Origin: Klebsiella phage KP591P1
DNA length: 45,696 bases
Reading direction: 5' to 3' (one strand)
Sequence record: NC_071147.1
Each line of letters opens with the position of its first letter. Position 1 is the stretch's first letter. Under the pieces are notes generated by a model. That model saw only the letters and a program-made list of their open reading frames with translations, did no database searches and was not told where the DNA came from. This document shows, piece after piece, positions 8,949-45,696 of the stretch. The position numbers and the translations under genes are program-made.

Positions 8949-8992
8949 CCATCACCTCTTTTTATTGTTAAATCAATCTACATCAAACCACG

Positions 8993-9421
8993 TCATTCAT
9001 CAAGCCCAAAATAGAATAACGTCGCCTTTTTTATCTCGTTAAGACCATAAGCAATGGCGCCAAAGTGACCTTCTGCAATGGCGCACTCAAGAACCTCAAT
9101 CTGCGATGGCGATACTTTTGATTTTGTCTTATCGCGCCTCTTCAGCTCAATCAGGCCGCATTTATGATTAATGCCGTGAGTTAGTATCACGTTGTCGCTT
9201 ACGCCGCTCCTGACGCCCATTTTTCGGCGTTTTTCGATGAATTGCGGGCCACTCTTTGTTCCAGTCTCGTTAGGCACATGAAACCACAGGACTTCAGGGA
9301 ATCGGTATTGCATCCAAAGACCATAGGCCATCTGGTCAGTCTCTTCTTTAGGGCATTCTCCACGATAACCACTGTCGAATACCCATATCCCGCTATCAAG
9401 CTGCTTCAATTTGTTCTCCAA
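8993..9421 (-). CDS. VRR-NUC domain nuclease
   Basis: 142 aa; ...KCGLIELKRRDKTKSKVSPSQ... pattern of VRR-NUC PD-(D/E)XK fold. Confidence 0.45.
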   Translation of the reverse strand: MENKLKQLDSGIWVFDSGYRGECPKEETDQMAYGLWMQYRFPEVLWFHVPNETGTKSGPQFIEKRRKMGVRSGVSDNVILTHGINHKCGLIELKRRDKTKSKVSPSQIEVLECAIAEGHFGAIAYGLNEIKKATLFYFGLDE

Positions 9422-11393
9422 TGAAATCCTTGCGGTGGATGATATCGCGGCCTTTATCGTTAAAACGATGCGTGATGCGCTTAGGCGCGCGAATAAGGCC
9501 AGTGAACGCCATGAATGCTTTTGCGTTGTGGCAATTCATGAGGTTATCAATCAGATTCCTGTCTGATACGTGGTTTAGTAATCCTTTAATCTTAAACTGA
9601 TTTTTAAGGTACTTCTCCTGCCTGCCAAATGGATAGAACACCTCACTGGCCCAGCCATCTTTGCCGTTTTCTTTCTTGATGAAGTAACGATAAACAACGC
9701 CCTTCTCATCTTTCGTTAGCTCAATCTTGAAATCCTTGACTTCAGTCCATTCATTATCCGTATAAGCACGCTCATTGAGCGCCGCGTTAGGGTCGCGCAA
9801 AACGTGATCGCATTGACGGCAATAACGAGCTGTCGGGTCGTTCTTTGTGCCGCAACCATCATCAAAAATACGGATGCCGTGCTTGTCGAAACCGCAGCGA
9901 ATGAAGCTGAAAAACTCTTCACAACGGCCATCTGGAGACGTTGAATCTTTACCGATGCAGCGCCTTGCATATGGGCTGTTCATAGTCTGGCATTTAGGGC
10001 ATGGCACCTGCTCTCCGCTGCGCTTGGCGCGCTGCGCTTCTGCTTCCTCAAGAATAGGGTCTTCGTACAGACCTCCAAGCTCGAACATGGTTCCGGTGAA
10101 GTCAAGGCAAAGGTGGTTTTCTTTCACCAGACCTGCGGCAATCTGGTCAGGCTTCAACAGGCGCATTGGTCGGCCAAGCAACTGTGTCAGAAGAGTCAGG
10201 GACATGATTTTTCTCAGAATGACAGACGTATCCCAATATGGGATGTTGACGCCAGTAGTGAGGCAACCGATTTGCAGCGTGTATTTTTTACGCCCGGTTG
10301 CCGCATCTTTCAGCGCTTTCCGTCTGGATTTCTGTCCCATATCCTCGGTAACAATGGAATAACTGCCTTCTGGTAAGTATTTTGCAGCCTCCTTACAGTG
10401 TTTTTTACCGGCGCAGGTAATGAGCACACCAAGCCTGTCGCGCGTAAGCTCCATGACTTTGAGCATTATTTTTTGCGTCAATGTACCCTGCTTGAGGATT
10501 TCTTCCTGCATCTCTTTTAGCTGGCTATCAGTGAAGTCCTGCACGCCGTCAACTTCACTACTGGCAAACTCATGCAGATCGTATTGCAAGCCCTCGATAT
10601 CCTGCCCGCCAAAGATGGTAGGGACAAGAAACCCAAGATCGACAAGGTATTTAGTGCTGATGTTGACGATTTCATGTTTCCAGTAAGCCCCTTTTATCGA
10701 CTCAACGCCGCGAAATGGGCTGCCGGTGTAGCCAATGACAATCACCTCATGCCCATACTTCGCTTTACAGCGCCGGTTAAGCTCGGTCATGATTATGCCG
10801 TATTGCGTTTCTGGCTTGTCGGCGAGTATATCCTGCCAATTAACCTGGTGACATTCGTCGACCAAAATATACCGCGGGGTAAAATCCGATAATGGAGATT
10901 TTATGACCTCACCATCAGGCCCATGTTTATCGAAAAGTCCATTTATTATTGTGCCTTCCGTTCCACAAATTATTGGGTATGCGGTTGATTTCCTGTTTAG
11001 GGATGCGCTAAACAAAGAATTTTTAACCTGCATGTTCCACATTTCCTCAGCATCCTGATCGGCTATTTCGCCTTGTCGCGCGATAACCATTCCATACCAG
11101 TCTAATTCTTCACCAGGCTCAAGCTCTTCTGGCCTTTTGTTCATGGCCTGAAAGCGCGCGGCAATCATGGCTATCATGATGGTCTTACCGGCGCCAACTG
11201 ACGCGGTAACATAACTTGGCTTTGGTTGCTTACCAAACTTGCGGATAACCTCCGCTGTCTTTTCATATACCAGCCACTGATAGGGGCGCGGTTCAATTTC
11301 CCCGGTATGGATGCTGGCCCGCAGCTTATCCATATCCAACTCAGCAATCATTGCATCAATTTTTTGCACTTCATCCACCTTTGTGTTGCTCAA
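9396..11393 (-). CDS. SF2 DEAD/DEAH-box DNA helicase with C-terminal Cys-rich zinc ribbons (start codon uncertain: track start is TTG at 11393)
   Basis: Walker A ASVGAGKT, DEAH-like ILVDECHQ, C-terminal CPKCQ...CRQCDH; start overlaps promoter motif. Confidence 0.7.
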   Translation of the reverse strand: MSNTKVDEVQKIDAMIAELDMDKLRASIHTGEIEPRPYQWLVYEKTAEVIRKFGKQPKPSYVTASVGAGKTIMIAMIAARFQAMNKRPEELEPGEELDWYGMVIARQGEIADQDAEEMWNMQVKNSLFSASLNRKSTAYPIICGTEGTIINGLFDKHGPDGEVIKSPLSDFTPRYILVDECHQVNWQDILADKPETQYGIIMTELNRRCKAKYGHEVIVIGYTGSPFRGVESIKGAYWKHEIVNISTKYLVDLGFLVPTIFGGQDIEGLQYDLHEFASSEVDGVQDFTDSQLKEMQEEILKQGTLTQKIMLKVMELTRDRLGVLITCAGKKHCKEAAKYLPEGSYSIVTEDMGQKSRRKALKDAATGRKKYTLQIGCLTTGVNIPYWDTSVILRKIMSLTLLTQLLGRPMRLLKPDQIAAGLVKENHLCLDFTGTMFELGGLYEDPILEEAEAQRAKRSGEQVPCPKCQTMNSPYARRCIGKDSTSPDGRCEEFFSFIRCGFDKHGIRIFDDGCGTKNDPTARYCRQCDHVLRDPNAALNERAYTDNEWTEVKDFKIELTKDEKGVVYRYFIKKENGKDGWASEVFYPFGRQEKYLKNQFKIKGLLNHVSDRNLIDNLMNCHNAKAFMAFTGLIRAPKRITHRFNDKGRDIIHRKDFIGEQIEAA

Positions 11394-11426
11394 TCTACGT
11401 CACAATAGTAGACTGAATCTACGGCA
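11392..11426. promoter_or_regulatory. two copies of conserved motif AATCTACGTCA / AATCTACGGCA (24-bp spacing) in divergent helicase/primase control region
   Basis: direct sequence match to motif family listed in findings. Confidence 0.5.
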
Positions 11427-11443
11427 ATAATCAAGGTAAAATT

Positions 11444-14595: not shown

Positions 14596-14642
14596 AAACC
14601 CAAAAAAATCTTGGGTTAAATTGGTTGAGCGTGGTATATAAA
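14596..14642. promoter_or_regulatory. operator-like elements: inverted repeat AACCCAA-N7-TTGGGTT, TGGTTGAG direct repeats (14547, 14621), TATATAAAT
   Basis: seen directly in sequence. Confidence 0.25.
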
Positions 14643-14710
14643 TATCAATGACTTATGAAATTGATAACTGAAAGTGACTACTAACCAAATTTTATTTTCA
14701 CCATCATATT

Positions 14711-14739
14711 GACGTAGATTGAGCGCCATCGTATAGTTA
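14711..14739 (+). promoter_or_regulatory. rightward sigma70-like promoter TTGACG-17-TATAGT (motif TTGACGTAGATTGAG) driving early operon
   Basis: near-consensus -35/-10 with 17-bp spacer, 30 bp upstream of RBS AAAGAGGTGA. Confidence 0.6.
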
Positions 14740-14768
14740 CCACACCAAAAACAAAGAGGTGATGAAGA

Positions 14769-14990
14769 ATGAAAAAAGGACAAATTGTTACAGCAACAGA
14801 AGTAAAACTTGGCTCAGGCGGCTATCTGACAGAGGGTAAGTCTTATGAGATTGTTTCTGCTATTGGTGATGAATGCCAGTACGGAAAAATAAAAACAGAA
14901 TTTGGATTCGAAATCGTAAATGATATGGGTACGAAAAGCTTCTGCCTGTACCCAGAATGCCTTCACGCCAAATGGAGTATCTCAGAATGA
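14769..14990 (+). CDS. hypothetical early protein (73 aa)
   Basis: RBS AAGAGGTGA; first gene after promoter. Confidence 0.5.
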   Translation: MKKGQIVTATEVKLGSGGYLTEGKSYEIVSAIGDECQYGKIKTEFGFEIVNDMGTKSFCLYPECLHAKWSISE

Positions 14991-15172
14991 CCAAAGCAAT
15001 CTACACGCGCACTCAACTGGAACCAGAAATGGGCGCTGTGAAAGCGCAAAACTTTATGATGGCGCAGGCAATGCATGCATACAGCAACGGCAAGCGCGTC
15101 TGTCGCGTTTTTACTGGCGAAGGCAAGCAGAGAGTGCTTGAGCAGGTTATCGTGTCATCTTGTGGAAACTAA
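14987..15172 (+). CDS. hypothetical early protein (61 aa)
   Basis: ATGA start/stop overlap with upstream gene. Confidence 0.4.
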   Translation: MTKAIYTRTQLEPEMGAVKAQNFMMAQAMHAYSNGKRVCRVFTGEGKQRVLEQVIVSSCGN

Positions 15173-15187
15173 ACCGTTTTAGCAACG

Positions 15188-15466
15188 ATGAATAAATTAC
15201 TGGCAGTGGTTTTACTGGTTATCGCTAACGCGGCATGCGCTGAGACTATATGGGTCACAAAGTATGCATTGACCCGTGGCATTCAGAAGTACGAAAGCGC
15301 ACAGCTGTTTGCCGATGGTCAGGTGGCTGTGGTTGGCGATGTTTACTTTAAACGTGGTGAATACTGGCTTGATGAACAACAGGCAAAAGAGCATGCAGAG
15401 ACTTTGCGGCAACGCCGCGTATCTGCACTGATGCGTGAGCTTGAACGTTTACAGGCGGTTAAGTGA
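15188..15466 (+). CDS. small secreted/periplasmic protein with signal peptide
   Basis: MNKLLAVVLLVIANAACAE signal peptide. Confidence 0.5.
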   Translation: MNKLLAVVLLVIANAACAETIWVTKYALTRGIQKYESAQLFADGQVAVVGDVYFKRGEYWLDEQQAKEHAETLRQRRVSALMRELERLQAVK

Positions 15467-15478
15467 GGATGGGAAAGA

Positions 15479-15943
15479 ATGAATAACGAAATCGAACAGA
15501 TTGCACTACAAAACGATATGAGCATTGAATTCGTAACCTGGTTCTTTAACGAGAAGAAAGCGGGTTGCGGAAATGCCTGGTTCATGATGATGGCTGCAAT
15601 GTGGGAAGGTTGGCAAGGCCGTAGCATCGAAATGGATAAGCTGGCTACGGAGAATGTGGCGCTGAAGGCGTTTGGCGACAAGCTGAGTGAAATGCATAAC
15701 GCACTGAATGGAGAAGGGACAGGCATTCAAGGACGTGCAGAAGTGGCTTGCCAGCAGGTCGCACTGGAAGCGGCAATGGAAGAGTTATACGCTATCGAAA
15801 CCCCCGCCACCGATCGCATCGTAGCCGGGATTAAGGCTGATGGGGTGGAGGAGTTTGCAAAGTACATCTCACTCTACAGTAGCAACTCGGAACGGCATGC
15901 TGATGACTTCGCCAAGCAGCTGCGCGAGGGGGCCGACAAATGA
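15479..15943 (+). CDS. hypothetical early protein (154 aa)
   Basis: ORF with ATGA overlap to next gene. Confidence 0.45.
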   Translation: MNNEIEQIALQNDMSIEFVTWFFNEKKAGCGNAWFMMMAAMWEGWQGRSIEMDKLATENVALKAFGDKLSEMHNALNGEGTGIQGRAEVACQQVALEAAMEELYAIETPATDRIVAGIKADGVEEFAKYISLYSSNSERHADDFAKQLREGADK

Positions 15944-16338
15944 GCAACTTTGATACTTCATCGCAAGTTAAGGCTCGCAAGTTACATCGTTGCTGTGAAT
16001 GTTATGGCGCTATCAATCCAGGCGATACCTACGAGAAAGTTTTTGTCGTCCAGGATGGCGATGCCAGCAACTTCAAGACATGCCAGAAATGCACAGAAGC
16101 ACGTGACTGGCTGCTTAACGAAACTGATTGGCCTGACGATATCGACGGAGATGGCCATTCGTTTTTCTTCACGATGCTGCGTGCCCACCTCCGTGAGCAA
16201 GGCCGTGAAGGCGACCGAAAATACGCATTTCGAGCGTATCGACTTGTCGTCCTGATGGATAAGCGCCGCATGGCTTATGCCAACGCATACAACGCGGAGA
16301 CCGTGAAAATCCGCGATTCTCTTGCTCAAGGAGTCTAA
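15940..16338 (+). CDS. hypothetical Cys-rich (zinc-binding) early protein
   Basis: HRCCECYG...CQKC motif. Confidence 0.45.
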   Translation: MSNFDTSSQVKARKLHRCCECYGAINPGDTYEKVFVVQDGDASNFKTCQKCTEARDWLLNETDWPDDIDGDGHSFFFTMLRAHLREQGREGDRKYAFRAYRLVVLMDKRRMAYANAYNAETVKIRDSLAQGV

Positions 16339-16340
16339 GC

Positions 16341-16607
16341 ATGACAACTGATATCACCGAACTGGCGCTGATTGCCAAAATCAAAAAACAGACCGAAAAC
16401 TTTGACACTGTAGTGCTGAAAGAGTGGGAAGCCCTCGCGCTGGTAGACGCGCTGGAGAAGGCGCAGCAGCGCATCGCCGAGCTGGAGTCCCGCACCGTGA
16501 AGCTGCCGCCATGTGTTGACGATCTGCATGGCATTGGGATGGTCATGTCTGCTGACGCAGTGGTAGAGGCGCTTACCTCATATGGCATCAAGGTGGAGGC
16601 TGAGTGA
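16341..16607 (+). CDS. hypothetical early protein (88 aa)
   Basis: ORF in operon, coupled to next gene. Confidence 0.45.
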   Translation: MTTDITELALIAKIKKQTENFDTVVLKEWEALALVDALEKAQQRIAELESRTVKLPPCVDDLHGIGMVMSADAVVEALTSYGIKVEAE

Positions 16608-16783
16608 TGGCGGAACGTTGGAAAATTTATCTCACTATTGCATTCATCGGATTGGGAGCTACGCCTATAAGCATGGTAGCGGCAAAGATTGACGTTCCTG
16701 TTTGGGCGCTTATTGCCGGGCACTGCGGCGCGATTATAGCAGGATTTATTTGCGCAGAACTTGGACGGGGAGCCAACCAATGA
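16607..16783 (+). CDS. small membrane protein (58 aa, two TM segments)
   Basis: MAERWKIYLTIAFIGLGATP...WALIAGHCGAIIAGFICAEL; ATG overlaps upstream stop; not in ORF track. Confidence 0.35.
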   Translation: MAERWKIYLTIAFIGLGATPISMVAAKIDVPVWALIAGHCGAIIAGFICAELGRGANQ

Positions 16784-17553
16784 CCAAATCAACCATAACC
16801 AGAGAACAGTTACTCGAAATTATTGAAACCGATCACGTGCAGTGTGGTGAGGCATCGTATCTCGCCAGCATGGCTTTGGCCGCAATGGACAGCGAGCCGG
16901 TGGCGTGGCTTCGTAATCCTGACCAGGGGTTTCATCTGCCAATGCTTCGGCTGGGTTCTAAAGACCCAAACCCAAACTTCGTTAACGAAGAGTTTTACCC
17001 TGTGTACGCAGCCCCGCAGCCAGAGCCGGTAGTGCCGGATGAAAACACTTTGCGCATTCAAGGTATTGAGGCCCTGGAAGAATTCTTGACAGCAACTACC
17101 GTAGAACCTGAAATGCTGGGTGGTATCAAGCTAACCCTCGCATGTTGCAGGGCATTGAAGGCTATCATTAAAAATAAAGGTTGGGCTGATTTCAACGACG
17201 GAAAGCCTGAGAAAGTAAAAGCAGAGACTATTATTACCGCTTTGCGCGAACCCCACCCGGACGCCTGCCGCGCCGCCATGCTGCATGCTGGCAACTCTCC
17301 GGCCAAAAACGGCGTCGCTCCGGCGCAAAGCGGCAACTCTCCGGTTATTCCGGATGGTTGGATTCCGGTAAGCGAGCGGATGCCGGAAATTGGCGATATC
17401 GTGCTTACCGCAATGGGAGGGGTAGTTAACGTTGGCGAAATGGAGTGCTCTGCTGCAAATTATCGTTTCTTCACGTCAGTTATTTCCGGTAGCGAGTTGC
17501 CGGCGACTCACTGGATGCCGCTGCCATCCGCACCAAAGGAAGGAAAACCATGA
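16780..17553 (+). CDS. DUF551 domain protein (257 aa)
   Basis: C-terminal ...THWMPLPSAPKEGKP; first in-frame ATG after upstream stop at 16780. Confidence 0.5.
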   Translation: MTKSTITREQLLEIIETDHVQCGEASYLASMALAAMDSEPVAWLRNPDQGFHLPMLRLGSKDPNPNFVNEEFYPVYAAPQPEPVVPDENTLRIQGIEALEEFLTATTVEPEMLGGIKLTLACCRALKAIIKNKGWADFNDGKPEKVKAETIITALREPHPDACRAAMLHAGNSPAKNGVAPAQSGNSPVIPDGWIPVSERMPEIGDIVLTAMGGVVNVGEMECSAANYRFFTSVISGSELPATHWMPLPSAPKEGKP

Positions 17554-17642
17554 AACCCTACATCATCCGAAGACTGATTGCCGTAGCCTGCATTGCATTC
17601 TGGATTGCTGTTGCACTGGCCGTCTACTTTATCTTGAGGTGA
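17550..17642 (+). CDS. putative small membrane peptide (30 aa)
   Basis: ATGA overlap; MKPYIIRRLIAVACIAFWIAVALAVYFILR. Confidence 0.25.
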   Translation: MKPYIIRRLIAVACIAFWIAVALAVYFILR

Positions 17643-17645
17643 TTT

Positions 17646-17804
17646 ATGCTGTGGAGCGACATTCAGGCTGCATGCGAAGAGGCTGACTTTCTTTATGAGG
17701 AGACCGGAAAGCATCATGCCGTCATTCAGGTCGGCAGCATGATGATGGTGGTTGAGCATAACAGCATGCTTCGGCATATGTACTCAACTACGAGGTATCA
17801 GTGA
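17646..17804 (+). CDS. hypothetical small protein (52 aa)
   Basis: coupled ORF chain. Confidence 0.25.
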   Translation: MLWSDIQAACEEADFLYEETGKHHAVIQVGSMMMVVEHNSMLRHMYSTTRYQ

Positions 17805-17941
17805 TGCCGCAAAAATCAAAGCAGGAGGTGTGGCAGAAGGCTCAACTCGAAGGCGTCGACCACTTCATAGCGGCAATCGCCAAAGCCTTCCCTGATGCTA
17901 TTGAGGTGGTTCACGTTCAAAGCAATAACTGTAATGTTTAG
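17804..17941 (+). CDS. hypothetical small protein (45 aa)
   Basis: TGATG overlap with previous ORF. Confidence 0.25.
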   Translation: MPQKSKQEVWQKAQLEGVDHFIAAIAKAFPDAIEVVHVQSNNCNV

Positions 17942-17997
17942 TGTTATGCGAAAACTGATGTACAATCATCTCATCAATCATCACCCACCACCCTTTA

Positions 17998-18022
17998 ACC
18001 CGCTTCGGCGGGTTCTTTTTTA
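17998..18022 (+). terminator. rho-independent terminator ending early operon
   Basis: ACCCGC TTCG GCGGGT TCTTTTTTAT. Confidence 0.7.
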
Positions 18023-18042
18023 TCTACGCCATGTGGTAAGAT
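18021..18042 (+). promoter_or_regulatory. motif copy TATCTACGCCA followed by extended -10 TGgTAAGAT upstream of terS
   Basis: sequence match. Confidence 0.35.
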
Positions 18043-20119: not shown

Positions 20120-20443
20120 TTATGCGTTGATGATAAAATTAAACGCGCCAGTTTTTCCTGTTCTCTCAACGTATTCAGCATATTTCTGATTGATGCCACC
20201 TTTAAAACTGGCAGCCATCGGCGCAAGGATTTCATACATTGCAGCAGCAAAGGTGGAGCGCTTATCTTCATCAAATGCCAGGTATTCATTGGTCATCTGC
20301 TGCTGCCTCTGAAAGAAGTTCACAATTTCTTCATGGATGACCACCATAACTTCTTCGTCAGTAATTTCAGCAGTAACACGCGCTTTAACACTCTCAACGA
20401 TGAGCGGTGCTACTTTTTTGAACTGGCTCAGGATGTTTTCCAT
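20120..20443 (-). CDS. hypothetical protein (107 aa; start moved to internal ATG with RBS)
   Basis: RBS AAGGAAATCAAA-ATG; upstream ATG of track ORF lies inside promoter elements. Confidence 0.4.
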   Translation of the reverse strand: MENILSQFKKVAPLIVESVKARVTAEITDEEVMVVIHEEIVNFFQRQQQMTNEYLAFDEDKRSTFAAAMYEILAPMAASFKGGINQKYAEYVERTGKTGAFNFIINA

Positions 20444-20490: not shown

Positions 20491-20519
20491 AATCTACATC
20501 AACCATGAATCCACGTCAA
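20491..20519 (-). promoter_or_regulatory. leftward promoter built from two motif copies 17 bp apart (TTGACG-17-TAGATT)
   Basis: AATCTACATCA (20491) and AATCCACGTCA (20508) on plus strand. Confidence 0.45.
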
Positions 20520-20532: not shown

Positions 20533-20823
20533 TTATTTGTAAAGCCAGCAATGAATCCCCGCATTGCGCATGGCGGCATAAATCACATCATCAGACACTA
20601 CCGCCATTGCCACCCTGTCAGCGTCAATCTGTTGGTGCGAAGCCATGATGTCATCATAGAAAATATCGTTAGCATGCAGCCACTCATACGCATGCTTTGC
20701 TCTCATGATAAGCACATCGTGACCGGCAGAGTAGGGCGACTTAGCCAGCGCAACGTTGCCAGCAATAGCATTTCCCTCAGCATCACGCAGCACGCCATCA
20801 AGCTCGAAAATGACACATTTCAT
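20533..20823 (-). CDS. small protein with HAD-like motifs (FELDGVL, VVSDDVIY)
   Basis: 96 aa; N-terminal VIFELDGVL resembles HAD motif I with Glu at nucleophile position. Confidence 0.35.
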   Translation of the reverse strand: MKCVIFELDGVLRDAEGNAIAGNVALAKSPYSAGHDVLIMRAKHAYEWLHANDIFYDDIMASHQQIDADRVAMAVVSDDVIYAAMRNAGIHCWLYK

Positions 20824-20849: not shown

Positions 20850-20877
20850 AATCTACGCCATGCTAGAATCTACGTCA
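20850..20877 (-). promoter_or_regulatory. leftward promoter built from two motif copies 17 bp apart (TTGACG-17-TAGATT)
   Basis: AATCTACGCCA (20850) and AATCTACGTCA (20867). Confidence 0.45.
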
Positions 20878-20911
20878 AGGCGCATTGACATAACTACATC
20901 ACCGGGGCATC

Positions 20912-21205
20912 ATGAAGGCATATTCATCTTTTTCGTGGGAGCAGAAGGAAAAAATATACTCACTCGCAAGAGCTGGTGTGTCGGATGAGGCGCTGTGCGA
21001 AAGGTACGATGTTGATGAGGCCATTCTGCTGCGCATGTATGATGAAGTGCTGTGTGAGTTGCAGCGGCGACGTGGTTATAGTGGCCTGAAGACGATTAAT
21101 GATTTCTTTCGGAATGTTGAATTGACTGGTGATGGTGATGATAAAGAAAAAGCTGCAAATGAAGATGCGCAAAGCTGCAATGGAGAAGTACACGGAAAAA
21201 ATTGA
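20912..21205 (+). CDS. hypothetical protein (97 aa)
   Basis: ORF after promoter region. Confidence 0.4.
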   Translation: MKAYSSFSWEQKEKIYSLARAGVSDEALCERYDVDEAILLRMYDEVLCELQRRRGYSGLKTINDFFRNVELTGDGDDKEKAANEDAQSCNGEVHGKN

Positions 21206-25901: not shown

Positions 25902-26029
25902 TTCTTCTCTCCGTTATAAATGCTTTTCAGTTCACCCATCACACTCAGCCATGCCGTGTGCTCATCCATTCCGCGCATCACCAGCTTTACGTAGCGATTG
26001 CGGGCCTTAAACATCAGACGCGGGCACAT
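25898..26029 (-). CDS. hypothetical small protein (43 aa)
   Basis: TAATG and ATGA overlaps link it to both neighbours. Confidence 0.25.
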   Translation of the reverse strand: MCPRLMFKARNRYVKLVMRGMDEHTAWLSVMGELKSIYNGEKK

Positions 26030-26319
26030 TACAGGTCACCCATGCTTGATACGCAAAGCGCAATTGTGATTGCCTTGATTTCTTTCGGCGTTTTGTTAGG
26101 CATTGAGTAGGCCATATTCACTGTTGCGCCAAGCACCTTGTTGGCATCCACTCCGTACTCAGGACTTTGTGCTACCGCCATTGCTACGCTCTGTGGAACG
26201 CCAGAATCACGAGCGTCTGCCGCTGCGAATCCAACCTCACCAACCTTGTCGCACACCTCACCCGCAGATGCGCCAAAGGAAGACATTGCGATAATTGCTA
26301 CTGCGATTAATTTTTTCAT
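26029..26319 (-). CDS. small secreted protein with signal peptide
   Basis: MKKLIAVAIIAMSSFGASAGE; RBS CAGGAGAG. Confidence 0.5.
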   Translation of the reverse strand: MKKLIAVAIIAMSSFGASAGEVCDKVGEVGFAAADARDSGVPQSVAMAVAQSPEYGVDANKVLGATVNMAYSMPNKTPKEIKAITIALCVSSMGDL

Positions 26320-26340: not shown

Positions 26341-26393
26341 TATCTACATCATCGCCCATGATTTAATCTACGTCAATAGGATTATGATAAAAT
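26341..26393. promoter_or_regulatory. divergent control region: motif copies TATCTACATCA and AATCTACGTCAA (leftward TTGACG -35) plus rightward extended -10 TATGATAAAAT
   Basis: sequence match. Confidence 0.45.
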
Positions 26394-26417
26394 AATCCGC
26401 ATCACCGGAGGTAACAA

Positions 26418-28024: not shown

Positions 28025-28545
28025 TATTTCACCTCCCCATTCAGTTCATTAACAATTAATGTTGCATAGCCAGCAATGTCTTTCCAGCTGTCGTCGTATG
28101 TCGGGTCGCCATTCAGGATTCGACCGATTTTATGCTGAATCATGTCGAGCGCTTCCTTCTGGCTCGCCGTCAGGTTGTTCCAGCCGTCAACATCGCGCAT
28201 GGTGTCCTTCAGTGACTGCATGATTTCTGCGCCGTCTTTGAATTTACCATAACGACTGCCGCGCTCGGTGATAAGGGCCTCTGTTGGGTCTGTGCATTCC
28301 TTGGTAGCCTGCTCCTCAATATCCACAATGTACCGCTTGGCCATGCATAAGAATTGACTGCGGTATACGCCCTCACCCCAAATTCCAGAGCCGCCATGCA
28401 CACCCCAATACCTGGCGCCGGGAGTTGGGGAGATTTCCACGAAATATTTTCGCTTGTTGTTGTCAATGACAAGCATTGTTGCTTCTTCAGGAGCGCCATA
28501 GAAATGACCCTCATTGCCTTTCGTGTATTTGTATTTCCTCATCAC
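28024..28545 (-). CDS. hypothetical protein (173 aa)
   Basis: largest gene of leftward operon. Confidence 0.45.
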   Translation of the reverse strand: MMRKYKYTKGNEGHFYGAPEEATMLVIDNNKRKYFVEISPTPGARYWGVHGGSGIWGEGVYRSQFLCMAKRYIVDIEEQATKECTDPTEALITERGSRYGKFKDGAEIMQSLKDTMRDVDGWNNLTASQKEALDMIQHKIGRILNGDPTYDDSWKDIAGYATLIVNELNGEVK

Positions 28546-28742
28546 TCCACCCTCAACGTAACTTTGTTTTTCTCATTCACGCTGAAGTGCTCACGCACAA
28601 ACGCATACATTTCTTCAGTGCTCCATTCCCGCATTGCTACATAGCAGTGCGCGTAATATCTGACATCTCGCAGGCTTAACGGCTGGCGCTTAGCGATAAT
28701 CTCAGTCAATACTTCCAGTGGTTCTTTGCGTTGTCTCGCCAT
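28542..28742 (-). CDS. hypothetical protein (66 aa)
   Basis: RBS ACAGGAGAG; first gene after promoter. Confidence 0.4.
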   Translation of the reverse strand: MARQRKEPLEVLTEIIAKRQPLSLRDVRYYAHCYVAMREWSTEEMYAFVREHFSVNEKNKVTLRVE

Positions 28743-28765: not shown

Positions 28766-28783
28766 CTTGACGAATCTACGTCA
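28766..28783. promoter_or_regulatory. 18-bp palindrome TTGACGAATCTACGTCAA containing the conserved motif; divergent promoter/operator
   Basis: perfect inverted repeat TTGACG/CGTCAA around AATCTA. Confidence 0.45.
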
Positions 28784-28832
28784 ATTAGTCAATACTCTGT
28801 GTTGTAGATTATAACATCTTAATGCGAGTGAT

Positions 28833-30077: not shown

Positions 30078-30294
30078 TGAAGGGTTGCTGGAGTGTCCTT
30101 TTTGCGGTAGCAATGATGCTTACAGCGACAGTCAGGGAGACGATTTTTTCGTTGCCTGTGCAGAGTGTGGTAATGGAACTGACTACTGGCTATTGCTGGA
30201 TGACGCCGTAAAGAAATGGAACACCCGCAACGGCCACCTCTACACCGCTGACGACTACAAACAAGATGCACTGGAGCGTGAGCATGGACTTTAA
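30058..30294 (+). CDS. Lar-family restriction-alleviation-like zinc-finger protein
   Basis: LLECPFCGSNDAY...VACAECGNG...KKWNTRN matches Lar family pattern. Confidence 0.5.
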   Translation: MKPMMNDEGLLECPFCGSNDAYSDSQGDDFFVACAECGNGTDYWLLLDDAVKKWNTRNGHLYTADDYKQDALEREHGL

Positions 30295-30754
30295 AACGCA
30301 AATACTCACGGTGATAGAGCGCTGTGGTGGCGCAACCAATGCCATGACACGCAAGCAGACTGGCATGACAAACCGTGCCAGCGTTACCGGCTATCTGATT
30401 GAGCTGGAGGGTATGGGATTTATTATTAAAGAGGAAAGCGTAAGTCATGGTCGGCGATGCTTTAAGTATTTCCTCAATCCCGATAATACCGCGCTTGACC
30501 TGGCAATTCAGACCTATCTTGAGGCGAATCCAGGGCGCAAGAGCAAGCAGATAGCAGAGGCTGTCGGCGTCAACTACACCATCCTCAAGGCACGCATGCG
30601 CTATCTGGCAAGCATTGGTCAGGTTGACCGTGAAATGCTTCCCGGCGGCGCATGGAAATATTACTGGCAGGAGATTATCCCGTTTGGCATGAGCCGTGAC
30701 AGGATGATGTTTGAAAAACTGCTTGCCGGGGCGCGCCAGTCATGTGGGCGGTAA
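30284..30754 (+). CDS. winged-helix DNA-binding protein
   Basis: two HTH-like segments (TGMTNRASVTGYLIELEGMG; QIAEAVGVNYTILKARMRYL). Confidence 0.4.
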   Translation: MDFKTQILTVIERCGGATNAMTRKQTGMTNRASVTGYLIELEGMGFIIKEESVSHGRRCFKYFLNPDNTALDLAIQTYLEANPGRKSKQIAEAVGVNYTILKARMRYLASIGQVDREMLPGGAWKYYWQEIIPFGMSRDRMMFEKLLAGARQSCGR

Positions 30755-31116
30755 AGCATAAATCAGGAACCGTGCTGTTTGTCACCAGTTGTGAGCGCAC
30801 GGCCAATAATCGCAGGGAGATGGGGTGGATAGTGGAGGAAGCAAAGATGACAAGTAGAGAGCAGTTTGAATCGTGGTATTTCAAGCGTTATGGCGTAAAG
30901 GATTTGACGGTAGTTAGAAATCACGCTGAATTTTGTGACGCGTTGGAGGTATGGCAAGCATCACGCGCAGCAATTGAGATTGAGCAAATGAAAGCTCTAA
31001 CAACCAGAGATGCATTGGCTGCTGGTTATACAGCGGATTATGCAACTGGCGTGGAGCATGGAATTCAGGTTATGGAAAACGCAATAGAATTGGCTGGATT
31101 AAAGGTGAAGGCATGA
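30742..31116 (+). CDS. hypothetical protein (124 aa)
   Basis: coupled ORF. Confidence 0.4.
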   Translation: MWAVKHKSGTVLFVTSCERTANNRREMGWIVEEAKMTSREQFESWYFKRYGVKDLTVVRNHAEFCDALEVWQASRAAIEIEQMKALTTRDALAAGYTADYATGVEHGIQVMENAIELAGLKVKA

Positions 31117-31457
31117 AACTACAACTTAACGAAATCATGGAAGCAACAATCAGCGAACTGGATGACATTGATATGACACTTGCCTTTGAGATTGAGGCTA
31201 TCGAGCGCCAGCTTTCTGGAAACCATGATGCAGACAGAGTATGGAAGGAGAAGGCAATGAAAGCTCGAGACCATATGAAGCGCACCCGCGCGCTGGTTCG
31301 CACTCGCCTTGATAAGCTCTACTACGGCGAAGAAAGAATGTTGCATGGCGCCATTCTGGCTGAAATCCGCAAAACGATGCCAATCGGGAAATTCATGGAT
31401 GCAGTAAACCGCGCAAAAATTAACTGCGGAATGTTAAATAAGAATAGTCCTCAATAA
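31113..31457 (+). CDS. hypothetical protein (114 aa)
   Basis: ATGA overlap. Confidence 0.4.
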   Translation: MKLQLNEIMEATISELDDIDMTLAFEIEAIERQLSGNHDADRVWKEKAMKARDHMKRTRALVRTRLDKLYYGEERMLHGAILAEIRKTMPIGKFMDAVNRAKINCGMLNKNSPQ

Positions 31458-36182: not shown

Positions 36183-36439
36183 CTTTGCCGCCTAAATGAA
36201 ATATTACCACCACCTATTGCAACATAACGGAATTTTCCGCAACCTTTTTTAACCCTGCACTTTCTGTATCTGTAGCGTCGAATTTCATGGTATGCCTTTT
36301 CTGTTAAAAGGAATGTAAATCCTTTATCAATGGCGCCAGCAACCTCAATAACAGCTTTAGACATTTGATCAATAATGTCTTTAGTGCTCATCGAAGACCA
36401 ATCCACGCTATGACCACTATTTATTAACCCTTTCATCAC
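36179..36439 (-). CDS. hypothetical protein with basic Cys-containing C-terminus (86 aa)
   Basis: ATGA overlap with ParB-like gene. Confidence 0.4.
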   Translation of the reverse strand: MMKGLINSGHSVDWSSMSTKDIIDQMSKAVIEVAGAIDKGFTFLLTEKAYHEIRRYRYRKCRVKKGCGKFRYVAIGGGNISFRRQR

Positions 36440-37251
36440 AACTTCTCCAGAATCGCCAGCACTTCATTCAACTCCGCAGAAGGAAGGCGCAAAAATTCTT
36501 CTGTTTCCTGTGCCACGTGCCCCTCAGCAACAACCATGTGATCTGCTTCTTTCAGCAACTGAATCAGGCGGTCAATCGGCTTAACTTTTTTGGCCTTGAG
36601 CGTTTTCGCCGTCACCTTATCCTTGCCCTGCGATTTCGCTTCCTCAACGGCAGCATCAATAACGTTAACGGCATCATCGCCATGCTCGCGCGCCACCGCA
36701 ACGGCGTTGGCATAGCTGATTTGGCCTGCATTGATGCGTTGCTTGATAGCATCAGGTACATCACCAAGTGACAGGTGCATCTGCACATCAGAAACCGAGC
36801 GGCCTACTTTTTTGGCGATTTCTTCATTCGTCCATCCGAACCCTTTGAGGCGCACATAAGCCTTTGCACGCTCAAGCGGGTCAAGCTGTTTGCCCTGACT
36901 GGATGACACCATGAAGGCGATTTTATCCGCTTCATCGCCGGTGAAGTCTTTGCACTCAATGCGCGCAATTGGCACGCCGCGCTCAATGGCACGCAGTGCG
37001 CCAAGATAACGATGCTGGCCGTCAAGAATCTTGATGCGCTTTCCGTCGGCATCAGGAATAACAGTTAACGCTGGGATTGGCTGTCCTGATTCCCAGCACT
37101 GCGCGAAGTATTCAACGTGCTGATCATCGGCTTCGCGGATGTTGTAGCCTGGCTCAAGGTAAAGCTGATCGACAGGAACCTGATAACCTTTGTTGACCAC
37201 GATTCCGCCGCGAGTTTCTTTGTCTGAGTAAATTTTTCCGAGAGATGTCAT
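36436..37251 (-). CDS. ParB/Srx-like nuclease-domain DNA-binding protein
   Basis: KILDGQHRYLGA (ParB box), HTH EEIAKKVGRSVSDVQMHL; RBS GAGGAAAAG before ATG 37251. Confidence 0.6.
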   Translation of the reverse strand: MTSLGKIYSDKETRGGIVVNKGYQVPVDQLYLEPGYNIREADDQHVEYFAQCWESGQPIPALTVIPDADGKRIKILDGQHRYLGALRAIERGVPIARIECKDFTGDEADKIAFMVSSSQGKQLDPLERAKAYVRLKGFGWTNEEIAKKVGRSVSDVQMHLSLGDVPDAIKQRINAGQISYANAVAVAREHGDDAVNVIDAAVEEAKSQGKDKVTAKTLKAKKVKPIDRLIQLLKEADHMVVAEGHVAQETEEFLRLPSAELNEVLAILEKL

Positions 37252-37692: not shown

Positions 37693-37719
37693 CTTCATCA
37701 CCTCTAACATTTATTGTTG

Positions 37720-37777
37720 TTTCTACGTCATCACTATAACGACACCCTCAATCTACGTCAACACTTTATGATAAAAT
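37720..37777. promoter_or_regulatory. divergent control region: leftward TTGACG-17-TATAGT promoter (motif TTGACGTAGATTGAG), extra motif copy TTCTACGTCA, rightward extended -10 TATGATAAAAT
   Basis: rc 37756-37761 TTGACG, rc 37733-37738 TATAGT, 17-bp spacer. Confidence 0.55.
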
Positions 37778-40145: not shown

Positions 40146-40273
40146 GTGGTGTTGTGGTGGCCGGTGCTGATCTCCGGCTTGATGGTGAGCACCTCGTCTT
40201 AGGAGGCTATCTGTAACGTTGCCATCGCGTATCCTCTTTGCGCATCAGCCTGCGCATTCACCACAACGGAAAG

Positions 40274-40350
40274 AGCACTACAAGGGACTCGAACCCTCAC
40301 CAGGTCACCAACCCGGCTTCCCGACTGGTTAGGTCATAAGATGAGAATGC
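40274..40350 (-). ncRNA. degenerate tRNA-like element (canonical T-arm and acceptor pairing, D/anticodon arms do not fold canonically)
   Basis: T-arm GAGGG-TTCGAGT-CCCTT, acceptor GCATTCT/GTAGTGC pairs 6/7; possible CCGGG-TTGGTGA-CCTGG (GGU) stem-loop misplaced. Confidence 0.3.
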
Positions 40351-40558
40351 CTCTCTCAACACATGCAATGCTCTTACCTGTTGTGTGCCCATTATTAATC
40401 ACACCGGGCCAGTGCGCCGAATTCATTGACAAGGAGTCGGAAGACCTTGCTGGTGTTTAGCCGTTAGGCTACTGCCAGATACATTTCTTCGTTTGCATTT
40501 ATCTTTGTGGTCAGTTTCTAAAAACCCGCAAATTCGCCACGAAAACCATCTGCCATTT

Positions 40559-40598
40559 AATCTACACCACCAATCAAAACCTGTCAACATGATATAAT
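40559..40598. promoter_or_regulatory. divergent promoters: leftward TTGACA-17-TAGATT (drives tRNA cluster) sharing CTGTCAA with rightward extended -10 TGaTATAAT (drives major tail gene)
   Basis: motif variant AATCTACACCA 40559-40569; CTGTCAA 40581-40587; TATAAT 40593-40598. Confidence 0.5.
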
Positions 40599-41732: not shown

Positions 41733-41859
41733 AATCCTCCACCACTATGCCAATCTTAGCCAGCAACAAAATCGCCTTTACGCGGGCCTCTTCATAGGTG
41801 TAACCCTGATCGATGTAAAGGTCGATGTAAAATCTCAAATCAGCATCAGTCTCGTTCAT
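41733..41859 (-). CDS. hypothetical small protein (42 aa)
   Basis: ATGA overlap; not in ORF track. Confidence 0.3.
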
Positions 41860-42155
41860 TTTTTATCACCCACATTAATCAAAGACCAAACCAGACAACC
41901 AACAAACCCCAACAGAGTCCATCCAAAGAAAAGGTTAAGCACCGCTATTGCCATGGTGTTTCTATGTCGCCTTGATGCGGCGACACATGTTGGAATCATG
42001 TAAATAAAGCACGCAGCAACCACCGATAGTGATACGATAATCATATCAGTAGCATATGAGTAACTAAACGAAAATACCGGCTTTACAAAGCCCATCATAA
42101 CCATTGCCTGCGCAATAATCCCAGCCACCAGAACCAAAACAATAAACTTTTTCAT
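41856..42155 (-). CDS. integral membrane protein (99 aa, 3 predicted TM segments)
   Basis: IVLVLVAGIIAQAMVMMGF, IIVSLSVVAACFIYM, AVLNLFFGWTLLGFVGCLVW; RBS GGAGGG. Confidence 0.45.
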   Translation of the reverse strand: MKKFIVLVLVAGIIAQAMVMMGFVKPVFSFSYSYATDMIIVSLSVVAACFIYMIPTCVAASRRHRNTMAIAVLNLFFGWTLLGFVGCLVWSLINVGDKK

Positions 42156-42183
42156 GTGAACACCCTCCGTTTCGATAACTCAA

Positions 42184-42222
42184 TCTACGTCAGTTTTGCG
42201 CCCCCTGTCAATGGTATAATTA
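42184..42222. promoter_or_regulatory. divergent promoters: leftward TTGACA-18-TAGATT (motif AATCTACGTCA supplies -10) and rightward extended -10 TGgTATAAT
   Basis: same CTGTCAA-N-TATAAT layout as 40581-40598. Confidence 0.5.
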
Positions 42223-42956: not shown

Positions 42957-45696
42957 TGGCAGAAGAAGTTGGCGGCATTGTCTATGAGGTTGGCATGGAG
43001 GTCTCGGGCCTCACTGCTGGCGCTAAACAGGCAGAGGATGCACTTGACAGCATCGACAAGTCAGCGCAGAACTCATCAAAAAGTATGGATAAGCTGGATG
43101 GTGCGGCATCATCATCTGGTAAAGAGCTTTCAGCTCTGGCAAAAATTGTAAGCTCCATTGATGCAACGCTGAAGGATATGGCCTCATCGTCGAAGACTGC
43201 CGCCAGCTCAGTAGAGGCTACAACCTCCAGTGTCACCGGTGCCGAGCAGGTTATTGCAGCCCTAAACCAACAGCTCGCACAGATGCAGCAGGCGCAGGTG
43301 TCCGCGAACGCAACCGGCCTTGCACTTCAAAACTCAGTCAATCAGGTCACTCAGGCAATTCGTGCGCTTGGCGCTCAGTCAACTGAAACAGGTGGCTCAA
43401 TCTCTGGCATTGACAGAATGATTGAGAGTCTTGGAAACCAGATCGCAATCCTCGACGAACAAGCGGAAAAAGGCGCAAGAAGTGCGGCGATACTGGCTGC
43501 GCAGCTTCGTGCAGGAGATAGCGCCACTGATGCGCAGAAAGCAAAAATAGCTGAGCTTACTGGCCGTCTGTATGACATGAAAAACAGCACCGAGGTGGCT
43601 GGGAAATCAACTGGTAATTTTAAGAACGCTTTACAGCAAAGTGGCTATCAGATTCAGGACTTTGTCGTACAGGTTCAGGGCGGACAATCGGCACTAGTGG
43701 CGCTAAGCCAGCAAGGTTCTCAGCTAATCAGCGTTTTTGGGGCCGGAGGCGCAATAGCTGGCGCATTATTGACTGTGAGCACAGTTATTGCTGGTTCATT
43801 AATAGCATCTTTGGGTAACGGTAAAAATGCCATTGACGCCCTGAAAGAAGCCATAGCGACCATGGATAGCGTCGTGTCGGTTTCATCTTCTGGTGTCGCT
43901 GTCTATACCGACAAATTCGCACGGCTTGCAAAAGTCAATTCAGAGGTAGCTACCCTAATGCGCCAACAGGCGCAGCTTGAGTTACAGGCAGCCCTGTCTA
44001 AAGTATCAGCGGAAGTCACAAAGGCATCAAGTGACTTTATCGGATTTGGCGATTCGCTTGTTTCATCGCTTGGTGGTGGCTATGCCAGCGTGAAACTTTT
44101 CAATGACTACATGTCGCAGCTTAATATCACAACGAATAGCTGGACGGAAGCCATTAAACAAGCGTCAGCAGCAGGTCAGGCCGGTCAGACGTCAATGAAT
44201 GGCATGATTGCCACGGTAGGCGCGTTAGCTGGTAAATTCCAGCTCTCCGACCAGCAGGCCTTCGAATTTGCAAAACAGCTTTCTGATATTGCAAAAAACC
44301 CATCTGATGAGAAGCTAAAGGCACTTATTTCCACTCTGCAAAGAGTCGGCGAGGGAACATCCAGCGGTGCGGCAACGGCGCGGGAGTATGCAAACAGACT
44401 GCTTGAGATTGCAACCAGCAGCGCTGATGCGTCACTGCGTCTTAAGCTGCTGAGGCAAATGACGGATGAGTTAACTGACTCTCAGGATAAAGCGTTGCAG
44501 CAGGCAAGGCAGACGCTTTTCATCGAGCGCCAGACTGGCGTAGAGAAACAGAAGGCGCTCGCATGGCGTGATGCTGAGAATCAGGGGCTAAAAGCCGGGA
44601 CTCAGGCATTTCGTGACTATTACAATGTTCGCCTACAAACCTATCAGCAACAGGAGAAAAATGCACAAGCCCTGAAGGATGAGCGTAGCGCGCAAAGTGC
44701 AGCAAACTCAGAGGCAAAAAAAGCAGCCACAGAGCAGGAGAATATCGCCAATAAACTTGAGCAGCTTCGCCAGAAGTCACTGCTTACCGCTGAAAGCACA
44801 AGAGAGCTTAGCCGTGAACAGTCAATACTGGCTGCTCAGCAATCCCTTGGCAAGGGAGCTACTCAGGAGCAAATTAACCTTGCCGGGCAATATGCGGCTA
44901 AGGCATGGGATAATGCCAACGCGCTCAAGGCTCAGGCGGAGGCAGAGAAGCAAAGGGTCGAAGCTGTCAAGGGATTCGCTGCATTAAAATCGCAGACATC
45001 CCCAATGTTTGCTGTTGAAACAAATTATCAGAAAGATTTAGCAGCGCTCAATGCTTACGCAGTAGCCTACCCGCAAAAGATAGCGGAGGTTGAGCAGGCC
45101 AGAGCAGCTATTGAGGAACAATACCGCCAGCAGCGCCTTGATGCCATGTGGCAGGAGTGGAGCCAGCAGAATGCGGCCACACAAGCGGCCGCTGCTGCAT
45201 TTGATGCTTTCGGGCAAACCGCAAGCAACGCCTTGACTGGTGTTCTTACTGGCTCAATGTCTGTTAGCGAGGCTCTACAGTCAATAGGGAGCAATGTGTT
45301 AAATGCGGTTATTAACTCTTTCGTTCAGATGGGTGTGGAGTGGCTTAAATCGGTGATCATGGGACAGGCAGGAATGGCAGCAGCATCTGCCGCAACCGCC
45401 GCTCAGGCAGCAGGAATAGCAGCGGCTATGGCGCCAGCGGCAGCGATGACATCACTTGCTACTGGCGGTGCTAACGCAGTACCTGCACAGGCTGGTATTG
45501 CTTCCACTGTTGGCGTAGCTAAAGCAATGTCTGTTGCTGGAGCATTGAAAAATGGTGGCCCTGCGCAGGCTGGCTCAATGTATCAGGTCGGTGAGAATAA
45601 CCTCCCTGAAATCTTCCAGGCCAGCACAGGTAAGCAGTATATGATTCCCGGAGATTCAGGTAAGGTTATCAGCAACAAAGACCTTACCGGCGGTGG
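42956..45696 (+). CDS. tail tape measure protein (N-terminal 913 codons; ORF continues through window end into nt 1-242)
   Basis: ATG 42956 overlaps upstream TAA; long Ala/Gln-rich coiled-coil with no stop to window end; ~975 aa total. Confidence 0.75.
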   Translation, partial: MAEEVGGIVYEVGMEVSGLTAGAKQAEDALDSIDKSAQNSSKSMDKLDGAASSSGKELSALAKIVSSIDATLKDMASSSKTAASSVEATTSSVTGAEQVIAALNQQLAQMQQAQVSANATGLALQNSVNQVTQAIRALGAQSTETGGSISGIDRMIESLGNQIAILDEQAEKGARSAAILAAQLRAGDSATDAQKAKIAELTGRLYDMKNSTEVAGKSTGNFKNALQQSGYQIQDFVVQVQGGQSALVALSQQGSQLISVFGAGGAIAGALLTVSTVIAGSLIASLGNGKNAIDALKEAIATMDSVVSVSSSGVAVYTDKFARLAKVNSEVATLMRQQAQLELQAALSKVSAEVTKASSDFIGFGDSLVSSLGGGYASVKLFNDYMSQLNITTNSWTEAIKQASAAGQAGQTSMNGMIATVGALAGKFQLSDQQAFEFAKQLSDIAKNPSDEKLKALISTLQRVGEGTSSGAATAREYANRLLEIATSSADASLRLKLLRQMTDELTDSQDKALQQARQTLFIERQTGVEKQKALAWRDAENQGLKAGTQAFRDYYNVRLQTYQQQEKNAQALKDERSAQSAANSEAKKAATEQENIANKLEQLRQKSLLTAESTRELSREQSILAAQQSLGKGATQEQINLAGQYAAKAWDNANALKAQAEAEKQRVEAVKGFAALKSQTSPMFAVETNYQKDLAALNAYAVAYPQKIAEVEQARAAIEEQYRQQRLDAMWQEWSQQNAATQAAAAAFDAFGQTASNALTGVLTGSMSVSEALQSIGSNVLNAVINSFVQMGVEWLKSVIMGQAGMAAASAATAAQAAGIAAAMAPAAAMTSLATGGANAVPAQAGIASTVGVAKAMSVAGALKNGGPAQAGSMYQVGENNLPEIFQASTGKQYMIPGDSGKVISNKDLTGG

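Follow-up and report, generated by a model that had tools for sequence, protein, structure and literature searches.

Mycobacteriophage L5 encodes gp71, an immunity repressor whose operators and 'stoperators' (reportedly the subject of Brown et al. 1997, EMBO J) form the closest functional analogue of the element described here, a short sequence box, TTGACGTAGATT, in the genome of Klebsiella phage KP591P1 (sequence record NC_071147.1; all 45,696 nucleotides (nt) were analysed and are referred to below as the window). Nearly all early promoters contain this box, both in KP591P1 and in related phages from no fewer than five other genera or lineages. Both the L5 site (13 bp) and the box are asymmetric, occur in many genomic copies and keep one orientation to transcription, and the copy in the L5 early promoter contains the -35 hexamer. 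In L5 one factor serves many sites, as we propose for the box. However, L5 is a temperate phage with the immunity repressor as its binder, whereas the clade carrying the box is virulent according to annotation. Moreover, the box also supplies -10 hexamers, and its clear copies all lie in core promoters, whereas the L5 sites lie mostly in transcribed regions and stop elongation. Conservation beyond the needs of RNA polymerase, which characterizes operators of the L5 type, was found for the box; stoperators inside operons were not, as no copy with at most one mismatch occurs inside operons of the window, either within or between genes.

Three further systems share some of these features. As for KorB and its OB sites (IncP plasmids) and for the SopB/ParB promoter sites of the plasmid-prophage N15, a ParB-family helix-turn-helix protein is encoded, its own operon carries two sites and the sites are dispersed at promoters; OB and parS sites are palindromes of 13-16 bp, however, and the box is asymmetric. 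The middle promoters of T4 combine a phage box near -30 with a host -10, as do two TTGACGTAGATT...TATAGT promoters of KP591P1. In T4 the MotA box has a fixed register, replaces the -35 and activates, whereas the box of KP591P1 accompanies an intact -35 and shifts its register, including over the -10, and scans of 34 window proteins, a part of the proteome, revealed no homologue of MotA or AsiA. Finally, the lytic mycobacteriophage D29 encodes a small repressor, the MerR-like Gp36, that adjusts early and late genes via repeated DNA sites and was experimentally shown to bind direct GC-rich repeats (PMC12266134); phage, host and motif differ, and the box is known here from sequence alone.

The most over-represented 10-mers of the whole KP591P1 genome are TGACGTAGAT and GACGTAGATT, with seven copies each against 0.09 expected. 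At up to two mismatches, TTGACGTAGATT has 15 matches, compared with 3.15 ± 1.8 expected, and none of 100 shuffles reached this number. An earlier sequence-only reading had proposed such an enriched intergenic motif, and its copies are all present within a few bases (8975/8985 instead of 8968/8980; 14709 on the plus strand; 28773; 42182; and 11392, 11416, 18021, 20491, 20508, 20850, 20867, 26341, 26365, 37720, 37750 and 40559), together with additional degenerate copies at 20891, 26394 and 28799 (+). The copy at 18021 is dubious, with three mismatches to the 12-mer, an overlap with the T-run of a terminator and no credible downstream gene. The proposed conserved unit TTGACGTAGATTGAG has to be redrawn as TGAYGTAGA(TT). 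Over six genomes the consensus is TGAYGTAGATT, preceded by T in about half of the copies and followed by G, C or A but never by T; the GAG extension that had been part of the motif is sporadic (4 of about 16 window copies). The core TGAYGTAGA is found in every register, while the final TT is strictly kept only where it ends a -10. Apart from a self-complementary central ACGT the box is asymmetric.

All 15 copies with at most one mismatch to TGAYGTAGATT lie in non-coding DNA, which accounts for no more than 22.7% of the genome (P <= 2e-10), and all 15 are co-oriented with the downstream gene or tRNA cluster. The distance from TAGATT to a start codon with a Shine-Dalgarno sequence is 12-77 nt. 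Copies also cluster: in five genomes, 91 same-strand pairs lie within 60 bp of each other, compared with 1.75 in shuffled sequences, with preferred spacings of 10, 17, 23-24, 29-31 and 46 bp. A generic scan for the sigma-70 consensus was powerless on its own (24-25 matches versus 22-27 expected), and iterative refinement of a weight matrix was abandoned as it drifted into the periodicity of coding sequence (TGnTGnTG). Between 26 and 45.7 kb, the three best sigma-70 consensus matches (at least 10/12, with a -35 of TTGACA or TTGACG) are all box promoters.

From their sequences, the copies are predicted to act as sigma-70-type promoters of early and non-structural units, in which one word would fill several roles: the left half, (T)TGAYG, would double as a -35 and the right half, TAGATT, as a -10, so that two copies 17 bp apart would make a whole promoter. 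The box occurs as -35 only in TTGACG-17-TATAGT (14709-14737 on the plus strand and 37761-37733 on the minus strand), as -10 only in TTGACA-17-TAGATT (40587-40559) and TTGACA-18-TAGATT (42211-42182), and as both hexamers in the 17-bp pairs 20519-20491 and 20878-20850 (TTGACG-17-TAGATT) and in TTGATG-17-TAGATT at 9003. Apart from the last, these arrangements had been noted before and hold up. All of them have a sigma-70 geometry (TTGACA-like, TAnnnT, 16-18 bp), which is absent at 11392/11416 and ambiguous for 28773. In total the box takes registers of -34, -17, about -4, -27 and -41 and also lies inside spacers; a single base separates one copy from a preceding TTGACG in LPST10, DS8 and Vi II-E1. 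There are accordingly two kinds of -35 hexamer, TTGACA followed by free sequence and TTGACG followed by TAGA. Promoters that take their -10 from the box invariably have the non-consensus TAGATT, and the two promoters with a box at -35 only have the better TATAGT. In their hexamers, 17-18-bp spacers, position and orientation these promoters resemble canonical Escherichia coli sigma-70 promoters, and the promoter part is ordinary sigma-70 biology. They differ in that one 11-mer can be either hexamer and in their invariant sequence at -17 to -13 and -29 to -25.

The units served by box promoters are more varied than the leftward accessory operons to which the motif had been assigned. They comprise the recombination operon, the helicase operon, the tRNA cluster, two early operons that run rightward (14709 and 28799) and a pair of short leftward units close to the terminase gene, besides the leftward operons at 26319, 28742, 37710 (ParB-like) and 42155. 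The leftward primase operon, beside a probable origin, has a box-free promoter, TTGCGC-17-TATAAT.

Comparison with related phages revealed which bases are under selection. Between 30000 and 45696, the 15.7 kb used for the comparison, the DNA is for the most part 92-94% identical to that of Klebsiella siphophages such as vB_KpnS_MK54 and vB_KpS_GP-1 and of Aeromonas phage pIS4-A (Roufvirus). More distant relatives, with about 70-75% DNA identity, are the Salmonella phages LPST10 (Skatevirus), Vi II-E1 (Macdonaldcampvirus) and Akira (Akiravirus), Shigella phage DS8 (Deseoctovirus) and E. coli phage ASO78B, which is without genus assignment; Vibrio phage LP.1 proved unrelated and was rejected as a relative. 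No RNA polymerase gene is annotated in KP591P1 or these relatives. Counted at up to one mismatch, LPST10, ASO78B, DS8 and Vi II-E1 carry 8-12 box copies each, with less than one expected. Akira and the related Klebsiella phage VLCpiS13d have about 15-16. These copies occupy orthologous promoters.

In alignments of five orthologous promoters across 5-6 lineages, little or no variation is seen in the hexamers and the box, whereas the remaining spacer and the flank upstream diverge freely. Of 25 columns of box bases that lie outside the hexamer in use, 22 are invariant, compared with 18 of 61 other spacer columns (Fisher p = 7e-7); the hexamers themselves (54/60) do not differ from the box in this respect. 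The predicted conservation beyond the hexamers is thus borne out and indicates purifying selection across lineages. At 42182..42211, for example, TTGACA and TGAYGTAGATT are invariant and 13 of 13 spacer columns vary. At the 14709 promoter, TTGACGTAGA is invariant in six lineages and is the sole conserved block of an otherwise unalignable upstream region; in other lineages its -10 is a second box copy, TGATGTAGATT. The constrained box bases outside the hexamers are TGAYG at -17 to -13 and GTAGA at -29 to -25, downstream of the -35. To our knowledge, sigma-70 has no base-specific requirement at either place, and the TG of an extended -10 is found at -15/-14, unlike that of the box at -17/-16. 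Since these bases are not read by sigma-70 and yet are constant, and since the box occurs in several registers, something besides RNA polymerase appears to read it.

The promoter of the ParB-like operon illustrates this point. Its second box copy, ATGACGTAGAAA (TGACGTAGAAA at 37731-37720), begins about 4 bp upstream of the predicted start site and, without the terminal TT, cannot serve as a -10. Nevertheless its TGACGTAGAAAC and the adjoining 5′ untranslated region (UTR) are invariant in six lineages, as is the entire UTR sequence GAAACAACAATAAATGTTAGAGGTGATGAA (37693-37731, minus strand).

Our best explanation, to which we give somewhat better than even chances, is that the box is both a shared sigma-70 promoter element and the operator of one sequence-specific factor, likely a repressor. 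TGAYGTAGA(TT) would be a clade-wide cis-regulatory box built into host sigma-70 promoters of early and non-structural units, and the factor would sit on the core promoter and block RNA polymerase; a factor placed over -35, -10 or +1 is expected to repress. In this way it could shut off, or throttle, all early promoters together. We infer both the existence and the sign of this factor. The sequence-only reading had likewise suggested an operator laid over host promoters. The geometry and the extra-hexamer constraint that it predicted are there, while operator function remains a reading of the sequence.

Several points weigh against this explanation. That the box stays invariant between phages infecting Klebsiella, Salmonella, E. 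coli and Shigella would also fit recognition by a conserved host transcription machinery, and strict co-orientation with transcription is also expected of a pure RNA-polymerase element. The spacings between copies (10, 17, 23/24, 30 and 46 bp) lack helical phasing, so that cooperative binding is not evident. Searches of the accessible literature found neither mapped transcription starts nor data on expression timing or binding for phages of this clade. Dimers of the ParB/KorB and MarR types usually bind palindromes, while the box is asymmetric. Finally, no binder can be named: Akira lacks the gene for a winged-helix protein and VLCpiS13d the orthologue of a ParB-like protein, the two candidates that had been put forward, and both phages keep the box, while the E. 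coli myophage ep3 encodes a ParB-like homologue (47-50% identical, depending on the alignment) in a genome without it.

The ParB-like protein is about 80% identical across lineages and its own operon promoter has two box copies. In VLCpiS13d, the orthologue has been lost and the same operon has a 216-amino-acid (aa) paralogue, only 20% identical and with an unrelated recognition helix, while about 15 boxes are kept. Together with ep3 this leaves the protein unsupported as the binder, as site and protein do not co-vary across genomes as expected of a ParB/parS-type pair. The window shows no enrichment of a ParB-type palindrome (AACAAT...ATTGTT or CAACAAT). The winged-helix protein, labelled MarR-like, is restricted to the clade, and its second recognition helix is conserved despite an overall identity of 32-37%; Foldseek with its predicted structure returned only generic MarR/PadR/SelB matches (TM about 0.4). 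Only its first 23 codons remain in Akira (31225-31293 of that genome), which has about 16 boxes, and it is disfavoured. As recent gene loss need not erase sites, Akira and VLCpiS13d are not decisive against either protein, although neither is supported. Pfam and PHROG scans of 34 early or core window proteins and three proteins from related phages found no further DNA-binding domain. Small core proteins are possible binders (66 aa, 28542..28742; 61 aa with DUF7540, 14987..15172; 45 aa; 97 aa, 20912..21205; 114 aa, 31113..31457), as is a host factor.

Two side observations concern the ParB-like family. In VLCpiS13d (15950-16700), the 3′ part of the ParB-operon UTR is duplicated and flanks the inserted paralogue on both sides, which by its sequence indicates recombination at conserved translation-initiation blocks. 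In ep3, the palindrome AACAATSATTGTT has 4-6 occurrences (1468, 33461, 37339, 39277 and others), one of them 88 bp upstream of the ParB-like gene, and is a plausible parS-like site for the homologue.

Among the alternatives, the one that survives best is that RNA polymerase alone reads the box, as a favoured promoter module of the sigma-70 holoenzyme that depends on context effects of adjoining bases, multiplied by duplication and stays uniform through selection for strength and recombination among its copies. The co-orientation and fixed distance to start codons would follow, both halves map onto sigma-70 hexamers, the box outlives the loss or replacement of both annotated DNA-binding proteins and is identical in phages of four host genera with nearly the same RNA polymerase, and VLCpiS13d demonstrates recombination at conserved promoter and UTR blocks. 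Nevertheless we regard this as unlikely. The bases at -29 to -25 and the TG at -17/-16, which sigma-70 does not contact, are as invariant as the hexamers, and the core 9-mer is also conserved near +1 of the ParB-operon promoter and inside spacers. Moreover, selection for strength should favour TATAAT over a fixed TAGATT, and homogenization within a genome leaves identity across lineages with diverged spacers unexplained.

The invariance across phages of different enterobacterial genera, and the failure of the search for a phage binder to name one, would also make sense if the box were a binding site for a nucleoid protein or transcription factor of the host, exploited by the phage. We know of no match, however, to the consensus sites of the E. 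coli regulators CRP, FNR, DnaA, IHF, MetJ, CpxR, PhoB, NarL or others, nor of an alternative sigma factor that fits the box, and the probable origin of the phage has proper TTATCCA DnaA-type boxes, which are unlike it. Furthermore, a scan for TTGACA-N12-TGAYGTAGATT in one genome per bacterial species gave at least 120 matches, and among the matches listed these were scattered over unrelated phyla and none was enterobacterial; they look like chance, for which we computed a level of about 140 by hand. We regard a host factor as improbable.

We consider it highly improbable that each copy is a stand-alone promoter for an RNA polymerase re-programmed by a phage factor, through appropriation as by T4 MotA/AsiA or through a small sigma factor like gp55, with tandem copies as tandem promoters. 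The 11-mer is indeed asymmetric and oriented, with a start codon always 12-77 nt away, and the copies at 11392/11416 and at 663 of LPST10 lack good partner hexamers. However, a perfect TTGACA 17-18 bp upstream of the box -10, invariant across lineages, is what sigma-70 region 4 recognizes, early genes need to be expressed before a phage factor exists, the +1 copy lacks T-7, and none of the 34 scanned window proteins has a sigma-, MotA- or AsiA-like domain. The least probable alternative is a mainly recombinational role, with promoter/UTR cassettes as linkers for swapping accessory modules and regulation secondary: gene content downstream of the conserved box promoters is highly variable between lineages and the extra ParB-like gene of VLCpiS13d has the same conserved UTR/ribosome-binding block on both sides, but 11 bp are too short for efficient homologous recombination, and per-base purifying selection within freely diverging flanks argues for sequence-specific recognition and not for homology length. 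Such a role does not exclude the promoter and operator functions that we favour.

If the box is an operator, its occupancy could also free the adjoining rightward late promoters. The extended -10 motif TGNTAWAAT occurs 13 times in the window (3.9 expected), with clear plus-strand examples before rightward structural and lysis modules at 1456, 26385, 31601, 37769, 40590 and 42212. These match the textbook E. coli extended -10 (TGnTATAAT, in which TGn precedes the hexamer and a -35 is not needed) and suggest that late genes have a promoter class of their own, without the box. The partners opposite the box promoters had been read as extended -10 promoters, rightly by sequence: TATGATAAAAT is found on the plus strand, with TGATAAAAT at 26385-26393 and 37769-37777, and the TGnTAAAAT form at 37769 is kept in other lineages. 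Four of them (26385, 37769, 40590 and 42212) lie within 0-7 bp of the -35 of a leftward box promoter. Near 28766, where a palindrome had been pointed out and TTGACGTAGATTCGTCAA is indeed present (28767-28784), the box copy sits downstream of the minus-strand extended -10 promoter TGTTATAAT (28816-28808), whose bases are overlapped by the 3′ end of the plus-strand box GTGTTGTAGATT, so that at 28799-28816 both -10s share bases. In ASO78B, the orthologue of the 28773 copy falls within the spacer of a promoter annotated as TTGACT-18-AATAAT. With such short distances or shared bases, the two polymerase-binding sites must overlap. This arrangement suggests that the back-to-back early box and late extended -10 promoters could form an early/late switch. 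A doubtful step further is that a single factor, either a small core phage protein or a host protein, binds an asymmetric operator placed in both sigma-70 hexamers of about 12 early promoters, most of them overlapping late extended -10 promoters back to back, and flips the whole genome from early to late by relieving promoter occlusion; if true, a virulent siphophage clade with many therapeutic Klebsiella, Salmonella and E. coli phages would possess a genetic switch distributed over the whole genome.

As a putative promoter/operator word, the box appears to be new, with no earlier description found in the searchable literature. Full-text searches with the box and its reverse complement returned unrelated primers only, and the literature on these genera and on Vi II-E1 within reach of the search, which did not extend to the 2008 Vi II-E1 paper, contains no promoter analysis and no box description. 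The promoter content of the ASO78B paper consists of five annotated consensus promoters only. The temporal programme of Roufvirus, Skatevirus and their relatives (hundreds of isolates, many of them proposed for therapy or biocontrol) is unstudied, and the box provides a map of their early promoters. It would also offer a precise, mutable target for gene timing in a virulent phage without its own polymerase, a bait sequence for the regulator, and a natural example of a short word serving as -35, -10 and operator. Possible uses include genome annotation and engineering, e.g. the silencing or re-timing of accessory genes with the coding sequence untouched.

Table 1. Box copies, predicted promoter elements and candidate binders in KP591P1 (window positions unless another genome is named).
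Feature	Position	Strand	Context
Box TTGACGTAGATT at -35 of predicted ParB-operon promoter TTGACG-17-TATAGT	37750..37761	-	Invariant in 5/6 lineages; TTGACGTGGATT in Vi II-E1
-10 hexamer TATAGT, ParB-operon promoter	37733..37738	-	Promoter scores 10/12; invariant in alignments
Second box ATGACGTAGAAA, about -5 to +7 of ParB-operon promoter	37720..37731	-	No terminal TT
Extended -10 TGATAAAAT	37769..37777	+	Rightward head-tail module (37923 onward); 7 bp upstream of leftward -35
TTGACA-18-TAGATT, box CTGACGTAGATT at -10	42182..42211	-	Ahead of 41856..42155 (Imm-like) and downstream genes
Extended -10 TGGTATAAT	42212..42220	+	Rightward tail module (42249 onward); directly adjoins leftward TTGACA
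TTGACA-17-TAGATT, box GTGGTGTAGATT at -10	40559..40587	-	Upstream of tRNA-Ser/Arg/Met cluster 40145-39895
Extended -10 TGATATAAT	40590..40598	+	Major tail gene (40633 onward); 2 bp from leftward -35
Box TTGACGTAGATT within palindrome TTGACGTAGATTCGTCAA (TTGACG-N6-CGTCAA, 28767-28784)	28773..28784	-	Ahead of 66-aa gene 28542..28742
Box GTGTTGTAGATT	28799..28810	+	Ahead of rightward early operon (HNH-AP2, Lar-like, winged-helix gene)
Two boxes TTGACGTAGATT, ATGATGTAGATA, 24 bp apart	26341..26376	-	Ahead of 26029..26319; third, degenerate, at 26394-26404
Extended -10 TGATAAAAT	26385..26393	+	Endolysin/lysis module (26418 onward)
Three boxes GTGATGTAGTTA, TTGACGTAGATT, ATGGCGTAGATT, spacings 24 and 17 bp	20850..20902	-	TTGACG-17-TAGATT ahead of 20533..20823
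Two boxes TTGACGTGGATT, TTGATGTAGATT, 17 bp apart	20491..20519	-	TTGACG-17-TAGATT ahead of 20120..20443
Dubious copy ATGGCGTAGATA	18021..18032	-	Overlaps T-run of plus-strand terminator
Predicted early promoter TTGACGTAGATT...TATAGT	14709..14737	+	Rightward small-ORF (open reading frame) operon 14769-17941
Two boxes TTGCCGTAGATT, GTGACGTAGATT, 24 bp apart	11392..11427	-	Ahead of helicase operon; good partner hexamers absent
TTGATG-17-TAGATT, box TGATGTAGATT at -10; overlapping degenerate copy TGACGTGGTTT 10 bp upstream	8975..9003	-	Ahead of exonuclease VIII/annealing protein/SSB operon
ParB/KorB-like helix-turn-helix protein, candidate binder	36436..37251	-	Pfam HTH_ParB 3.3e-11, KorB 1.7e-6; phrog_1033
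'MarR-like' protein, candidate binder, disfavoured	30284..30754	+	Two tandem winged helices (predicted structure model)
ParB-like loss/replacement in VLCpiS13d	VLCpiS13d 15149-15223 and 15979-16629		

The window is a complete Roufvirus-like siphophage genome: its first and last 55 bases (1-55 and 45642-45696) are identical, so that it represents a circularly assembled genome of 45,641 unique bp. The rightward genes are chiefly structural and lysis modules, between which leftward replication, recombination and accessory operons are inserted. A non-coding block at 14269-14708, beside the primase/helicase operon, has a G+C content of 29% and contains three minus-strand TTATCCA repeats resembling DnaA boxes (14360-66, 14370-76 and 14382-88) as well as the inverted repeat TACTACTAT/ATAGTAGTA (14417-25 and 14438-46). 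By its sequence, this block is probably the replication origin. At a place equivalent to 17997-18032, VLCpiS13d (44690-44731) has a plus-strand box copy, AGACGTAGATT, directly upstream of the small terminase gene. A possible seventh TGNTAWAAT ahead of a rightward module, at 22492 (+), is uncertain and overlaps a terminator-like hairpin. The tRNA leader (40146-40558, minus strand) spans about 400 nt between the tRNA promoter and tRNA-Ser and contains, at about 40283-40300, GGTTCGAGTCC, which resembles a tRNA T-arm; no tRNA is called there by ARAGORN or Rfam, and the element may be a decayed tRNA. Several early genes have in common a near-identical ribosome-binding block, AAAGAGGTGATGAAnATG (8950-8965, 11372-11390, 14752-14771 and 37693-37708). 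Finally, the palindromes CTGATATCAG (three sites) and TGGCGCCA (seven sites) are likewise over-represented genome-wide.

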